64,000 bases of DNA from Escherichia coli. GTDB lineage: Bacteria > Pseudomonadota > Gammaproteobacteria > Enterobacterales > Enterobacteriaceae. Below the pieces are notes generated by a model. That model was not told the DNA's origin, ran no database searches, and saw only the letters and a list, made by a program, of their open reading frames with translations. The position numbers were made by a program, and so were the translations under genes. This document shows, in pieces, positions 26,272 to 56,224 of the stretch; positions within the stretch are counted from its first letter, which is position 1; each line of letters begins with the position of its first letter. The stretch lies in the NCBI RefSeq assembly GCF_009931435.1, contig NZ_CP043414.1; one strand, given 5' to 3'.

Positions 26272-27699
26272 ATGAACACCGTACTTGCACAACAAATCGC
26301 CAACGAAGGCGGCGTCGAAGCCTGGATGATTGCGCAACAACATAAAAGCCTGCTGCGTTTTCTGACCTGTGGTAGCGTCGATGACGGCAAAAGTACCCTG
26401 ATTGGTCGCCTGCTGCACGATACCCGCCAAATCTACGAAGATCAGCTCTCATCACTGCATAACGACAGTAAACGTCACGGCACCCAGGGCGAAAAACTGG
26501 ATCTGGCCCTGCTGGTGGACGGCCTGCAAGCTGAGCGTGAACAGGGCATCACCATTGATGTGGCTTACCGCTATTTCTCCACCGAGAAGCGTAAATTTAT
26601 CATTGCCGACACTCCCGGGCACGAGCAGTACACCCGCAATATGGCGACTGGCGCATCGACATGCGAACTGGCGATCTTACTGATCGATGCCCGTAAAGGC
26701 GTGCTCGATCAAACCCGTCGTCACAGTTTTATCTCCACGCTGTTGGGTATCAAACATCTGGTCGTGGCGATCAACAAAATGGATCTGGTGGGTTACAGCG
26801 AAGAGACGTTCACCCGCATTCGTGAAGATTATCTGACCTTTGCCGGGCAGCTGCCGGGTAATCTGGATATCCGCTTTGTGCCGCTCTCCGCACTGGAAGG
26901 CGACAACGTGGCTTCGCAAAGTGAAAGTATGCCGTGGTACAGCGGTCCGACACTGCTCGAAGTGCTGGAAACCGTGGAAATCCAGCGAGTGGTGGATGCT
27001 CAGCCAATGCGCTTTCCGGTGCAGTACGTTAACCGCCCGAATCTCGATTTTCGTGGCTACGCCGGAACGCTGGCATCCGGTCGCGTGGAAGTCGGGCAAC
27101 GTGTCAAAGTGCTGCCCTCTGGTGTGGAATCAAACGTCGCGCGGATCGTGACCTTTGATGGCGATCGCGAAGAAGCCTTTGCCGGAGAAGCGATCACCCT
27201 GGTGCTGACGGATGAGATCGACATCAGCCGTGGCGATCTGCTGCTGGCGGCAGACGAAGTGTTACCGGCTGTGCAGAGTGCGTCGGTGGATGTGGTGTGG
27301 ATGGCGGAACAGCCGCTTTCCCCGGGCCAGAGTTACGACATCAAAATTGCCGGTAAGAAGACGCGTGCTCGTGTTGATGGCATTCGTTATCAGGTTGATA
27401 TCAATAACCTTACCCAACGCGAAGTTGAAAACCTACCGCTGAACGGCATCGGCCTGGTAGATCTCACCTTTGACGAGCCACTGGTGTTAGATCGTTATCA
27501 GCAAAACCCGGTTACCGGTGGGCTGATTTTTATCGATCGCCTGAGTAATGTGACCGTAGGTGCCGGTATGGTGCACGAGCCAGTTAGCCAGGCAACTGCT
27601 GTGCCATCTGAATTCAGTGCATTCGAACTGGAATTGAATGCCCTGGTCCGTCGTCATTTCCCGCACTGGGGCGCTCGCGATTTACGGGGAGATAAATAA
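26272..27699 (+). CDS. cysN: Sulfate adenylyltransferase subunit 1 (GTPase)
   Basis: ORF track; G1 motif [15 protein letters not shown]. Confidence 0.95.
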
Positions 27700-49045: not shown

Positions 49046-51124
49046 TTAAACCAATGCCGATTTATCAATCCCCAGTCGTTTCATCCGTGATAGCAGTGTG
49101 GTGCGTTTTAGTCCCAGACGTTGCGCCGCGCCTTTCGGCCCGGCAACCACGCCGTTAGTCTCTTTTAATACACGCACAATTAGCTGATATTCATCTTCGC
49201 CCTCCTGAGCGACGACCGTTGCAGTCGGCGGCGTTTTAGGTTCCGGTAAAGCAATATCAGGCAATGACAGCTGCAGCACGTTGCCACGTGTCAGCAATAC
49301 CGCGCGCTCAATGACGTTTTCCAGCTCGCGTACGTTACCCGGCCACTCCATATTGCTCAACGCGCGCAACGTTTCGGCAGGAATGCTGTCGATATTACGC
49401 CCCAGACGGCGGGCAATTTTAAAAGTAAAGGCTTTTGCCAGCAGCGGAATATCTTCCGGACGCTCGCGTAGTGGCGGCAGGTGGATCGGGAATACGTTCA
49501 GGCGATAATAGAGATCGCTACGGAACTCGCGGTCGGCAACCATTTTTTTCAGATCGCGGTTAGTCGCGGCAATTAAACGCACGTCCGTCTGTATAATTTT
49601 ATTACTGCCGAGACGTTCAAACTCCTGTTCCTGTAATACACGCAGCAACTTCGGTTGTAACTCCAGCGGCATATCACCCACTTCATCGAGGAACAGGGAG
49701 CTTTTATCCGCCAGTTCAAAACGACCGATACGCTGGGCGCTGGCTCCGGTAAACGCACCACGCTCATGACCAAACAGATCGCTTTCCAACAATCCGGCAG
49801 GCATCGCCGCGCAGTTCATTTTTACCATGCGGCGATTATTACGCCCACTGAGATTATGGATCGCGCGGGCAATCAGCTCTTTACCAGTGCCAGTTTCACC
49901 GAGAATCAGCACGGTACTGTCACTTTGTGCCACCATTTCAACTTGTTTAAGCACGCTGTACATGGCTTCACTGCGACCAATAATCTCGCCAAATTCACTA
50001 TCAACATTGTTGAGCTGCTCGGTCAGGGCGAGATTTTCATCAACCAGTCGTTCTTTCAGACGATGAATTTCCTGATAGGCAAGGGCGTTATCGACAGCGA
50101 TTGCCACACGTTCGGCAATCTGGCGCAGTAAATTCAGATTGGTCGTGGTAAACACTTTCTCTTCGCATTGCGCCAGTTTCAGCACGCCCAGCATGGTGTC
50201 GCCAGACATCAGCGGTAACAGGCACAAGGTTTGAATCTGGTTGCCCCAGGTGTCGAACAACATGCGTTCGTAGGGGGCTAAATTATCTCGCTCGTGGAGA
50301 TTAATCAGCAGCATCTCTTTGCTTTTAAACACGCGTTCGGTGAGGGTTCCAGCTTCATCGACTTCGCTCTGTTCGTGAGCGGGATGCTGTTTATCAAGAT
50401 AGTGAGTGGAGTAGATGTTGAGTTTGTTTTTACGGTGGCTGCGTAAGACGATGCTGATATCGTCAATGTCGAAATAGTAATGGATTTCTTTGGCGACTTC
50501 GCTGACCAGTTCGTCCATATCCAGGCGAGAAAGCACCGCGTTGGTGATGGCAACCAGGATGCGGAAGTTATCGCGTTCCCGGCATAACAACTCATAGTCG
50601 ACATTATTGACGACGCGGCTCTGGATTTGTTCGGTGACGACAGAAATGATCTGCGTAAAAGTTTGCAGGCGATTGAACTCTTTTTCACTCCACGGGCGAT
50701 CGTCATAACGAATAAATTCACAGCCACCAAAAATATGCCCTTCCGCCGCCAGTGGCATCAGGCAATAGTGACCAAATTTGGGGTATAGCCCACCAGCGGC
50801 CAGCTGCGGCCAGGTTTCACAAAATTCTTCGTAACTGCAATGTAGTGTATCAGGGCGCGACAAAATGCTGCGCACTGGACCGTGTGCCAGAACAGTTTCG
50901 TCTTCATAATTTATGGGGGTGTCTTTTTCACGCGACGCGTAATAAGACGCACGTTGAGTCTGCGCTTGCCACAACACAATAGCTGCATTGTCGGCGAGCG
51001 CAGAACGCTTTACCAATTGCGAAAGAGCCTCACACAGCGAGGCCAGATCGGGCTGCTGCAATAGTGTCCGAGTGATGTCGAACAACCCTTGTTGTCCGAG
51101 ATCACTCATCGGTGTATATGACAT
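49046..51124 (-). CDS. fhlA: Formate hydrogenlyase transcriptional activator (sigma-54-dependent, 692 aa)
   Basis: ORF-track frame 49046..51160; start taken at MSYTPMSDLGQQ...; GAF domains, AAA+ Walker A GETGTGKE, GAFTGA motif, C-terminal HTH. Confidence 0.9.
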   Translation of the reverse strand: MSYTPMSDLGQQGLFDITRTLLQQPDLASLCEALSQLVKRSALADNAAIVLWQAQTQRASYYASREKDTPINYEDETVLAHGPVRSILSRPDTLHCSYEEFCETWPQLAAGGLYPKFGHYCLMPLAAEGHIFGGCEFIRYDDRPWSEKEFNRLQTFTQIISVVTEQIQSRVVNNVDYELLCRERDNFRILVAITNAVLSRLDMDELVSEVAKEIHYYFDIDDISIVLRSHRKNKLNIYSTHYLDKQHPAHEQSEVDEAGTLTERVFKSKEMLLINLHERDNLAPYERMLFDTWGNQIQTLCLLPLMSGDTMLGVLKLAQCEEKVFTTTNLNLLRQIAERVAIAVDNALAYQEIHRLKERLVDENLALTEQLNNVDSEFGEIIGRSEAMYSVLKQVEMVAQSDSTVLILGETGTGKELIARAIHNLSGRNNRRMVKMNCAAMPAGLLESDLFGHERGAFTGASAQRIGRFELADKSSLFLDEVGDMPLELQPKLLRVLQEQEFERLGSNKIIQTDVRLIAATNRDLKKMVADREFRSDLYYRLNVFPIHLPPLRERPEDIPLLAKAFTFKIARRLGRNIDSIPAETLRALSNMEWPGNVRELENVIERAVLLTRGNVLQLSLPDIALPEPKTPPTATVVAQEGEDEYQLIVRVLKETNGVVAGPKGAAQRLGLKRTTLLSRMKRLGIDKSALV

Positions 51125-51197
51125 TTTGTTCTTCCAGGAAAGCACCGCAAAGCGGTGCAAAAGGTCATTGACTAACTATAGGAGATTTAGAATTTTA

Positions 51198-53598: not shown

Positions 53599-54461
53599 CG
53601 CTGTGTCTCCAGCCAGTTCAGCCACTGGTCCATCCCTTCGCCGCTGGTGGCGGAAATAAGGATGATTTCAATTTCTGGATTGACTTCGCGGGCGCAGGCG
53701 ATGCACTTCTCAACGTCGAAATTGAGATACGGCAGCAGGTCAACTTTGTTGAGCAGCATCAGCGAGGCGGCGGCAAACATATGTGGATATTTCAGCGGTT
53801 TGTCTTCACCTTCGGTAACGGAAAGCACCGCCACTTTGTGTTTTTCACCGAGATCGAAGCTCGCCGGACATACGAGGTTGCCAACGTTTTCGATAAACAG
53901 AATACCGTTATCGTCCAGTGGCAGGCGCGGTGCGGCGTCGGCAATCATCTGTGCGTCAAGATGGCAGCCTTTACCGGTATTCACCTGAATCGCTGGTGTG
54001 CCGGTAGCGCGAATGCGTGCGGCATCGTTCACGGTTTGCTGGTCACCTTCAATAACTGCGCACGGAACGCTGTCTTTCAGGCGCATCAAGGTTTCCGTCA
54101 GCAGGGTGGTTTTACCGGAACCAGGGCTGGAAACCAGGTTGAGCACCAGTTGCTTACGGGCAGCAAAGCGCGCGCGGTTGCGTTCAGCCAGACGGTTGTT
54201 TTTGTCCAGCACGTCAATTTCGACTTCCAGCATCCGACGCTGGCTCATGCCCGGCGCGTGAGTGCCCGCTTCGCCATGACCGTAATGCAGGTCGCCTTCT
54301 TCAGTCTGGCTGGGGGTAAATTCAGGCGCTTTAATGCCGGTGATTTTCATCTTCGGGCGTGCCGCCGGGGCAAATGGCGCGCTACGAAACGCGGAATGAG
54401 GGTTATGTTCATCACCCTCGATATACAGGTTGCCTTCACCGCAACCGCATGTTGTACACAT
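53589..54461 (-). CDS. hypB: [NiFe]-hydrogenase nickel-incorporation GTPase HypB
   Basis: ORF track; N-terminal [10 protein letters not shown] and His-rich stretch; P-loop SSPGSGKTT. Confidence 0.9.
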
Positions 54462-54464
54462 CGC

Positions 54465-54815
54465 TCACTCCTGGTCTATTTCTATCCGCCGAATCTGTAA
54501 ACCGTCGTCTGCCACAATCTGTAGCATGTCACCATGACACTGTGGACAGCGGCGGACGCGCTGGGTCAGTAGCGTCACATATTGTTGGCATGTTTCGCAC
54601 CAGCATTCGGCCTCTTGTTCTTCGAGGTGCAGTTTACAACCTTCCGCTACGCTGCCGCGGCAAACCAGATCAAAACAAAAGGCAAGAGAGCTGGTTTCGA
54701 CACAAGAAAATGCGCCAATTTTGAGCCAGACCCCAGTTACGCGTTTTGCACCGTGTTTTGCGGCCTGCTGTTCGATCAATTCCAGTGCCCGTTGGCAGAG
54801 GGTTATTTCGTGCAT
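54465..54815 (-). CDS. hypA: [NiFe]-hydrogenase nickel insertion protein HypA (116 aa)
   Basis: ORF-track frame 54465..54827; start at MHEITLCQRALE... behind GGGAGG; zinc-finger Cys pairs. Confidence 0.9.
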   Translation of the reverse strand: MHEITLCQRALELIEQQAAKHGAKRVTGVWLKIGAFSCVETSSLAFCFDLVCRGSVAEGCKLHLEEQEAECWCETCQQYVTLLTQRVRRCPQCHGDMLQIVADDGLQIRRIEIDQE

Positions 54816-54845
54816 ATCGCCTCCCATTAACTATTGCCAGCTACA

Positions 54846-54861
54846 AGCAATAATTGTGCCA
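54846..54861 (-). promoter_or_regulatory. Sigma-54 promoter for hypA (-24/-12)
   Basis: Reverse complement reads TGGCACAATTATTGCT, matching GG-N10-GC; about 30-45 nt upstream of the hypA ATG. Confidence 0.55.
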
Positions 54862-54888
54862 GTGTTGATTATCCCTAAAGTGAATAAT

Positions 54889-54927
54889 GTCGATGATGTC
54901 GAAATGACACGTCGACACGGCGACGAA
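54889..54927. promoter_or_regulatory. Candidate FhlA upstream activating sequence
   Basis: Repeated TGTCGA / TCGACA elements (tgtcgatgatgtcgaaatgacacgtcgacacggcgacg) between the two divergent sigma-54 promoters. Confidence 0.35.
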
Positions 54928-54974
54928 ATTCACCAGAATCCTAAAAATCTCTTTTATAACAATAAATTAAAAGT

Positions 54975-54990
54975 TGGCACAAAAAATGCT
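54975..54990 (+). promoter_or_regulatory. Sigma-54 promoter for the hyc operon (-24/-12)
   Basis: TGGCACAAAAAATGCT matches GG-N10-GC; about 35-50 nt upstream of the hycA ATG. Confidence 0.55.
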
Positions 54991-55026
54991 TAAAGCTGGC
55001 ATCTCTGTTAAACGGGTAACCTGACA

Positions 55027-55488
55027 ATGACTATTTGGGAAATAAGCGAGAAAGCCGATTACATCGCACAGCGGCATCGTCGCCTACAGGACCAGTGGCA
55101 TCTCTACTGCAATTCGCTGGTTCAGGGGATCACGTTATCGAAAGCGCGCCTGCATCACGCCATGAGCTGTGCGCCAGACAAAGAACTCTGTTTCGTCCTT
55201 TTTGAACATTTTCGCATTTACGTCACCCTGGCGGATGGCTTTAACAGCCACACCATCGAGTATTACGTCGAAACGAAAGAGGGTGAAGAAAAACAGCGGA
55301 TTGCGCAGGCACAATTGAGCATTGACGGAATGATAGATGGCAAGGTCAACATCCGCGATCGCGAACAGGTACTGGAACACTATCTCGAAAAAATCGCTGG
55401 CGTTTACGACAGCTTATACACCGCCATTGAAAACAATGTACCGGTGAATTTAAGCCAACTGGTAAAGGGACAAAGCCCGGCGGCATGA
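55027..55488 (+). CDS. hycA: Formate hydrogenlyase regulatory protein HycA
   Basis: ORF track; 153 aa. Confidence 0.9.
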   Translation: MTIWEISEKADYIAQRHRRLQDQWHLYCNSLVQGITLSKARLHHAMSCAPDKELCFVLFEHFRIYVTLADGFNSHTIEYYVETKEGEEKQRIAQAQLSIDGMIDGKVNIRDREQVLEHYLEKIAGVYDSLYTAIENNVPVNLSQLVKGQSPAA

Positions 55489-55612
55489 GCTGAGGCTTTG
55501 CCCGTTTTGCAGGCGTTACGCCTGTTTGGGGATGGGCGTGTCGATGAGTGTCGAAAATGACATTTCATCGGCATGTTTTCGTCAAAAATGACAATCACCT
55601 GAGGAATGCCTG

Positions 55613-56224
55613 GTGAATCGTTTTGTAATTGCTGACTCCACACTCTGTATCGGCTGCCACACCTGTGAGGCCGCCTGTTCAGAGACGCATCGCCAGCACG
55701 GCCTGCAATCAATGCCGCGCCTGCGAGTGATGCTAAATGAAAAAGAATCTGCGCCGCAGCTCTGTCACCACTGTGAAGATGCACCCTGTGCGGTGGTCTG
55801 CCCGGTTAACGCTATCACCCGCGTTGATGGGGCAGTGCAGCTGAATGAAAGCCTGTGCGTAAGCTGCAAACTGTGCGGCATCGCCTGCCCGTTTGGCGCA
55901 ATCGAATTTTCCGGCAGCCGTCCGCTGGATATTCCGGCAAACGCCAATACCCCGAAAGCACCACCGGCACCGCCTGCTCCGGCGCGTGTCAGCACGTTGC
56001 TTGACTGGGTGCCGGGTATTCGCGCGATCGCCGTCAAATGTGACCTCTGTAGCTTTGATGAACAAGGTCCAGCCTGCGTGCGGATGTGCCCAACCAAAGC
56101 CCTGCATCTGGTGGATAACACCGATATCGCCCGCGTCAGCAAGCGTAAGCGTGAGCTGACCTTTAACACGGACTTTGGCGATCTCACCTTGTTTCAGCAG
56201 GCTCAAAGTGGAGAGGCTAAATGA
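55613..56224 (+). CDS. hycB: Formate hydrogenlyase Fe-S subunit HycB
   Basis: ORF track (GTG start, GAGGAA upstream); four CxxCxxCxxxCP ferredoxin motifs. Confidence 0.9.
   Translation: MNRFVIADSTLCIGCHTCEAACSETHRQHGLQSMPRLRVMLNEKESAPQLCHHCEDAPCAVVCPVNAITRVDGAVQLNESLCVSCKLCGIACPFGAIEFSGSRPLDIPANANTPKAPPAPPAPARVSTLLDWVPGIRAIAVKCDLCSFDEQGPACVRMCPTKALHLVDNTDIARVSKRKRELTFNTDFGDLTLFQQAQSGEAK

Follow-up and report, generated by a model that had tools for sequence, protein, structure and literature searches.

The 211-bp spacer between hypA and hycA, at positions 54816-55026 of the stretch of Escherichia coli DNA analysed here (64 kb, hereafter the window), is almost certainly the divergent hyp-hyc control region of the Escherichia formate regulon. 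It is a real, strongly conserved and already known region, described since 1990. This assignment is carried by the elements found in the spacer, their orientation, their statistical excess over shuffled sequence, their identity to sites that sigma-54 occupies in E. coli K-12 and their retention across 80 species. The original description of the hyc-hyp divergent NtrA (sigma-54) promoters is said to be that of Lutz and colleagues in 1990, in which the transcription starts were reportedly mapped.

The genes around the spacer

The genes that frame the spacer, and the activator gene linked to them, are as follows.

54465..54815, minus strand: hypA coding sequence (NCBIfam HypA NF002979, 241.8 bits; annotated hypA in E. 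coli genomes), first gene of hypABCDE-fhlA
55027..55488, plus strand: hycA coding sequence (NCBIfam HycA NF007567, 298.9 bits), an antagonist of FhlA
55613..56224, plus strand: hycB coding sequence, GTG start (open reading frame list and E. coli annotation), the first structural gene 3' of the second array, UAS2, described below
49046..51160, minus strand: fhlA, formate hydrogenlyase transcriptional activator (NCBIfam NF011958, 1542.7 bits)

The true start of hypA is the ATG at 54815 (MHEITL), and the start at 54827 given in the open reading frame list is an in-frame ATG further upstream. The fhlA gene lies on the same strand as hypA, downstream of hypE, and it encodes the cognate enhancer-binding AAA+ activator for sigma-54 promoters found in the window. 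Its family match begins at residue 13 of the open reading frame, and its true start is probably near 51124.

A 1.3-kb segment around the region had a match, with the same annotations, in every one of 5426 complete E. coli genomes except one, the identity being 95-99.5%. Over positions 54400-55700 the identity to most E. coli genomes was 95-99%, and it reached at least 99% in 5 of them; the predominance of the 95-99% class points to a less common Escherichia lineage as the source of the window. The spacer in K-12 is equally long and lies between the same genes. K-12 and the window do not differ in either promoter 16-mer, in any part of UAS1 (the array between the promoters), in the hycA leader or in the entire hycA-hycB spacer, while the hypA-hycA spacer carries ten substitutions (54877-54879, 54933, 54935-54937, 54939, 54941 and 54955). 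All ten fall outside the conserved blocks, at positions unconserved between species, and represent strain-level variation only.

For comparison between species, 100,044 species genomes were scanned with HycA, which gave 80 loci (HycA identity 63-99%) and, together with the window, 81 sequences. The loci belong to Escherichia, Salmonella, Citrobacter, Enterobacter, Klebsiella, Raoultella, Kluyvera, Kosakonia and other genera. In every one of the 80, hypA is divergent from hycA, across a spacer of 188-223 bp. The closest HycA in this collection (99%) is carried on a contig binned as 'Citrobacter sp.' in the MAG HRGM_Genome_0066 (locus L002); with a true copy of the Citrobacter type (L023) in the same MAG, that contig appears to have been binned wrongly.

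Two back-to-back sigma-54 promoters

Two promoter elements were located in the spacer.

54846..54861, minus strand: hyp sigma-54 promoter TGGCACAATTATTGCT, -24 GG at 54859-54860, -12 GC at 54847-54848, predicted start ~54835
54975..54990, plus strand: hyc sigma-54 promoter TGGCACAAAAAATGCT, -24 GG at 54976-54977, -12 GC at 54988-54989, predicted start ~55001

A sequence-only reading of this DNA had proposed two -24/-12 elements with GG-N10-GC spacing, facing in opposite directions toward hypA and hycA, and their coordinates and orientation were confirmed. The gap from GG to GC is exactly 10 bases in both promoters, each of which points at its own gene, and the two stand back-to-back, 113 bp apart. 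When 127,970 positions of the window were scored with a sigma-54 matrix of 186 promoters (PMC7658346), the hyp promoter ranked first (19.0 bits) and the hyc promoter second (15.2 bits), and only 3 positions reached at least 13 bits. Both are of the TGGCAC-N5-TTGC type; compared with TGGCACNNNNNTTGC, the hyp promoter has no mismatch and the hyc promoter one. A match of at least 15.2 bits on each strand occurred in none of 5000 dinucleotide shuffles of the spacer, and on either strand in 10 of 5000.

The third-best match to the matrix in the window is TGGCACAGCAGTTGCC at 27591-27606 (minus strand, 15.05 bits). It lies antisense within the 3' end of cysN (26272-27699, plus strand) and is absent from the main-text tables of the K-12 sigma-54 ChIP-seq paper. 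A further sigma-54-like sequence, TGGCATCTCTACTGCA, reads in the sense direction within hycA at 55096-55111 (plus strand, 11.9 bits, rank 7). At that position K-12 has TGGCACATCTACTGCA, a closer sigma-54 match; TGGCATCTCTACTGCA may simply reflect the codons for Q-W-H-L-Y-C.

Evidence from K-12 bears directly on the promoter pair. Extended by one 5' base, the hyp promoter reads CTGGCACAATTATTGCT and the hyc promoter TTGGCACAAAAAATGCT, which are identical to the 17-mers bound at hypA and hycA, respectively, in K-12 ChIP-seq. The K-12 sigma-54 peaks have FAT scores (times threshold) of 201 for hypA and 91 for hycA (Bonocora et al. 2015), both promoters are flagged as experimentally confirmed in EcoCyc (Bonocora et al. 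2015), and in-vitro genomic SELEX (gSELEX) with the sigma-54 holoenzyme selects the hypA-hycA spacer. By identity to the bound K-12 17-mers, and with gSELEX selecting the same spacer, both promoters are predicted to be sigma-54-occupied sites. The control by FhlA and sigma-54 that the sequence-only reading had invoked for the formate regulon is supported, on the sigma-54 side by this identity and by the EcoCyc record. Under the rule that the start lies 19 nt downstream of the motif centre (Bonocora et al. 2015), transcripts would begin at ~54835 and ~55001 with leaders of 20 and 26 nt, in agreement with the distances tabulated for K-12.

The same arrangement is kept between species. The homologous promoter was the top sigma-54 matrix match on the correct strand in 81 of the 81 sequences, with minima of 15.4 bits (hyp) and 13.9 bits (hyc), and the distance from the motif end to the start codon was 28-34 nt for hypA (42 in one species) and 34-37 nt for hycA throughout. 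As a separate observation, the hyp (54830-54862, minus strand) and hyc (54974-55006, plus strand) promoters agree, between about -27 and +6, at 23 of 33 positions and have GCTGGCA at the predicted start site in common; outside Escherichia, the likeness beyond the -24/-12 elements is kept only in part.

It could be argued that the -24/-12 matches are silent sigma-54 sites, of a kind widespread in E. coli, and that sigma-70 promoters in the spacer drive the two operons, since most sigma-54 sites detected by ChIP-seq are inactive under any one condition (Bonocora et al. 2015) and a weak sigma-70-like scan gave 2 matches in the region. However, 1.3 such matches were expected, so that there is no excess, and K-12 hyc is without a sigma-70 ChIP peak. 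In Salmonella, moreover, transcription of hyc, hyp, hydN and fdhF depends on sigma-54, and in all 81 sequences the place and direction of both elements with respect to the start codons are the same. We consider sigma-70-driven operons extremely improbable, and treat the two elements as the sigma-54 promoters of hyp and hyc. Neither sigma-70 promoters nor intrinsic terminators exceeded the numbers in shuffled sequences between 54700 and 55700, and a search of 54300-55800 for Rfam families gave only a chance-level match to isrA (E = 0.89).

A phased array between the promoters

The segment between the two promoters holds a repeated element that we take as a candidate binding array for FhlA.

54885..54932, no strand: FhlA enhancer array UAS1 AATGTCGATGATGTCGAAATGACACGTCGACACGGCGACGAAATTCA, FhlA matrix 16.1 bits, rank 2 in the window
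Units within UAS1: TGTCGA at 54888 and 54897; TGTCGAAATGACA at 54897-54909; TCGACA at 54912-54917; CGACGAAATTCA at 54921-54932

The repeated TGTCGA/TCGACA motifs that had been noticed between the promoters are three in number, at 54888 and 54897 on the plus strand and at 54912 on the minus strand (TCGACA on the plus strand). At least three copies of TGTCGA in the spacer occurred in 3 of 5000 shuffles, and the FhlA matrix score of UAS1 was matched in none of 5000. A count of hexamers alone falls short of the full element: they belong to a longer phased array of ~45 bp, in which TG(T/A)CG-like units follow one another at intervals of about one helical turn. Relative to the predicted starts, the array runs from 113 to 71 bp upstream for hyc and from 53 to 95 bp upstream for hyp. 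An FhlA UAS is expected ~70-150 bp upstream of its promoter, and the position of UAS1 relative to hyc falls in this range.

With an FhlA matrix of 13 characterised sites (PMC7658346), the top two matches in the window were 55549-55562 (TGTCGAAAATGACA, 17.4 bits), in UAS2, and 54888-54901, in UAS1, scores that are partly circular because the K-12 counterparts of both arrays were very probably among the sites used to train the matrix. An FhlA consensus, CATTTCGTACGAAATG, is attributed to Leonhartsberger et al. 2000 in a Salmonella activator table; its CGAAATG half is found in UAS1 at 54899-54905, and the published consensus and the matrix have the CGAAATG / TGTCGAAAATGACA core in common. The earlier proposal that the repeats are candidate FhlA sites therefore agrees with the second-best matrix match and with the half-consensus that they contain. 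Independent support for the putative identity of the FhlA array is given by its conservation and by the comparison with fdhF and hydN: the core ATGTCGA..TGTCGAAATGACAYGTC is kept across the 80 species, and the upstream regions of K-12 fdhF and hydN carry phased YGTC/GACR arrays of the same motif class as UAS1.

Could the repeats and the promoter-like motifs have arisen by chance in an A/T-rich spacer? Short hexamers do recur by chance: TGTCGA is over-represented window-wide, with 49 copies against 29 expected (none of 100 shuffles reached 49), and another pair of copies 20 bp apart, at 35890/35910, lies inside a coding open reading frame (35807-36400, plus strand). Both the excess and this pair are probably codon-driven, and the pair was rejected as an FhlA site as it lies in a coding frame and has no FhlA matrix score. 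Against chance stand the shuffles, of which so few or none reproduced the promoter pair (0 of 5000), the hexamer cluster (3 of 5000) or the FhlA matrix score (0 of 5000), and the retention of the elements across 80 species while the surrounding spacer diverged. The shuffle and conservation results refute a chance origin, to which we give practically no probability.

A second question is whether a regulator other than FhlA binds the TGTCGA-type repeats, for example the FhlA paralogue HyfR, a GlrR-like protein or ModE, with FhlA acting elsewhere. TGTC/GACA half-sites also occur in the GlrR consensus (TGTC-N10-GACA, in the Salmonella activator table), and ModE has been described as a secondary activator of hyc. 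The spacing found here is TGTC-N5/N6-GACA, or direct repeats at 9-10 bp, and not the N10 of GlrR. In addition, the FhlA targets fdhF and hydN have the same type of array upstream, the published FhlA matrix scores the present sites highest in 64 kb, and fhlA is linked to the locus. It is thus highly unlikely that another regulator is the one that recognises the repeats, and FhlA is retained as the predicted ligand of UAS1.

A second array between hycA and hycB

Outside the hypA-hycA spacer, a related array was found beyond the 3' end of hycA.

55539..55593, no strand: FhlA enhancer array UAS2, composed of TGTCGATGAGTGTCGAAAATGACA (55539-55562) and TTTCGTCAAAAATGACA (55577-55593)

UAS2 holds the best FhlA matrix match in the window and, in addition, a match of 12.1 bits. 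With one more 5' base its first module reads GTGTCGATGAGTGTCGAAAATGACA (55538-55562), and its first 24-26 bases nearly repeat the beginning of UAS1. Of the 4 matches to the pattern YGTCRWNNWTGACR in the window, where 0.27 were expected, three are in UAS2. UAS2 is more constant between species than UAS1, with TTTCGTCAAAAATGAC present exactly in 76 of the 81 sequences, and its two modules are 25-29 or 35-38 bp apart. It lies ~700-760 bp upstream of the hyp start and ~550 bp into the hyc transcript.

Schlensog and colleagues reportedly obtained, in 1994, FhlA footprints on the hyp-hyc spacer and on a site between hycA and hycB, the distal site being said to act as the enhancer of the hyp promoter from ~700 bp away and the proximal site to serve hyc. 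We take UAS2 to be this enhancer, reportedly assigned to the hyp promoter in the primary literature. A full-text literature search turned up no passage that describes FhlA footprints or the site between hycA and hycB.

UAS2 lies within the hyc transcript, and a conserved RNA structure over it was considered and rejected: RNAalifold gave -5.6 kcal/mol with no compensatory pairs. A nested hairpin drawn by hand over UAS2 was rejected as well; some of its flanks covary, but a control with the partners slid by one column scores as high, and base pairs form in only 29% of the cells of its outer helix. On either side of TGTC-N6-GACA in UAS2 (55548-55565; columns 18-35 of alignment A2) the bases tend to remain complementary (AU, GC, GU, UA), which, given the slid control and the RNAalifold result, makes no case for an RNA structure. 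Between the hycA stop codon and UAS2 there is a hairpin at 55500-55537 (plus strand; core CAGGCG-TTA-CGCCTG, -23.8 kcal/mol, z = -2.65). Enterobacter, Klebsiella, Kluyvera and Kosakonia have shorter hycA-hycB spacers, which lack the segment of ~50 nt that contains this hairpin.

An A/T-rich block beside the hyc -24 element

One more element of the spacer adjoins the hyc promoter.

54957..54969, plus strand: IHF-like block TAACAATAAATTA, rich in A/T, immediately 5' of the hyc -24 element

The block has one mismatch to the IHF core WATCAANNNNTTR, and no exact copy of this core was found across the hypA-hycA spacer. In 26 of the 81 sequences the exact core occurs at the equivalent offset, 18-19 nt before TGGCA, and the block is A/T-rich in all 81. 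It is unusually near the hyc -24 element, with its centre at about -38. A block AATAACAnTAAATTAAAAnnTGGCA is common to the K-12 hydN promoter and hyc, and IHF is listed as an activator of both hyc and hyp (PMC2636881). From its sequence, TAACAATAAATTA is a probable IHF site. The longer phased array, UAS2 (outside the coordinates of the sequence-only reading) and this block abutting the hyc -24 element all go beyond what that reading had described.

A binding summit of FNR has been assigned to hyc by ChIP-seq, at K-12 position 2,848,688 (Myers et al. 2013). This position corresponds to ~54796 in the window, within the first part of hypA. Near the mapped summit no sequence came within 2 mismatches of an FNR box, and the only near-match to an FNR box in the spacer, TTTATAACAATAAA at 54953-54966, overlaps the IHF-like block.

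Conservation and spacing across genera

When the spacers were aligned, the bases kept in at least 95% of sequences fell into six blocks: the hypA ribosome site, the hyp -12/-24 elements, the UAS1 core, part of the A/T-rich block, the hyc -24/-12 elements and the hycA leader. Across the 80 species the spacers have diverged except for conserved islands, namely both promoters, the core of UAS1, the IHF-like block and UAS2.

Measured from the UAS1 core, in spacers aligned to 54862-54975 of the window, the hyp -24 element is 40-42 or 50-53 bp away and the hyc -24 element 49, 60-63 or 71-72 bp away. These classes cover 79 of the 81 spacers; one was not anchorable, and one Enterobacter is off-class at (49, 65). 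Their distribution is as follows.

Escherichia, Citrobacter amalonaticus/sedlakii, Intestinirhabdus: hyp side 42 bp, hyc side 71 bp
Salmonella: hyp side 40 bp, hyc side 71 bp
Enterobacter, Lelliottia, Huaxiibacter, Pseudenterobacter, RIT714: hyp side 42 bp, hyc side 72 bp
Citrobacter (other species), Enterobacter sp. ENT03: hyp side 41 bp, hyc side 60-61 bp
Kosakonia: hyp side 40 bp, hyc side 62 bp
Pseudescherichia: hyp side 42 bp, hyc side 49 bp
Klebsiella/Raoultella, Kluyvera, Pseudocitrobacter, Superficieibacter/UBA5654: hyp side 50-53 bp, hyc side 62-63 bp

Between genera the spacing from array to promoter differs in steps of 10-11 bp only, that is, in whole helical turns, a regularity that is only suggestive because it reflects few independent events (about five). 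In some genera a gain of ~10 bp on the hyp side goes with a loss of ~10 bp on the hyc side, and the total stays constant at 113-115 bp. The simplest cause of the steps is the gain or loss of one repeat unit of ~10 bp, which preserves phasing automatically. The 10-11 bp steps in the distance from the UAS1 core to the -24 elements are also a hint for a different arrangement, in which UAS1 would be a shared bidirectional enhancer, rotationally constrained to both promoters, and would cooperate with UAS2, ~650 bp off, through an FhlA-bridged loop enclosing hycA. We regard this arrangement as rather unlikely.

Comparison with related systems

A close parallel outside Escherichia is the locus of Salmonella. 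Salmonella Typhimurium has the same divergent layout, with the hycA and hypA promoters TGGCATGGAAAATGCTTA and TGGCATAAATATTGCTTT, and the Salmonella hyc and hyp promoters are ChIP-chip positive and sigma-54 dependent. In the locus of S. enterica subsp. diarizonae the UAS1 and UAS2 cores are kept. Salmonella differs in having T, not C, at the sixth position of the -24 element and TGACG, not TGTCG, in some half-sites.

The FhlA-dependent E. coli fdhF and hydN-hypF have, as here, a -24/-12 promoter with phased YGTC/GACR units ~60-140 bp upstream (CGTCAAAACTGACG and TTTTCGTCA in fdhF, TGTCATCACATGTCATCGTCACTAGTGTCGATGACATCG in hydN). However, they are single promoters and not a divergent pair, and both lack a second array within a neighbouring gene that is transcribed. 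In zraP / zraSR (hydHG), two sigma-54 promoters face away from each other in one short spacer, as they do here, and one activator serves both. That system differs in its activator, ZraR, and in its binding sites, and we know of no second distal array there.

Discussion

The elements described above fit a mechanism in which sigma-54 RNA polymerase would form closed complexes at both back-to-back -24/-12 promoters, one reading into hypABCDE-fhlA and the other into hycABCDEFGHI. FhlA, its ATPase stimulated by formate, would bind UAS1 and UAS2, reach the closed complexes by DNA looping and open them. On the hyc side, looping may be aided by a bend at the A/T-rich IHF-like block beside the -24 element. 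HycA, the first hyc product, would antagonise FhlA and so close a negative feedback, and the location of fhlA downstream of the hyp genes would provide a positive one. For the occupancy by FhlA and IHF, the response to formate, the exact starts and the assignment of each array to a promoter, we infer this scheme from the literature.

These results amount to a consistency check on the annotation and add no new biology. Taken together, they indicate that the annotation of the window is coherent, the hyp and hyc operons being accompanied by the control elements expected for formate- and sigma-54-dependent expression, and that these control elements are intact and the same as in K-12 at every functional position. 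The cross-species footprint provides a compact map of the constrained bases of the spacer, which could guide promoter engineering for hydrogen production.
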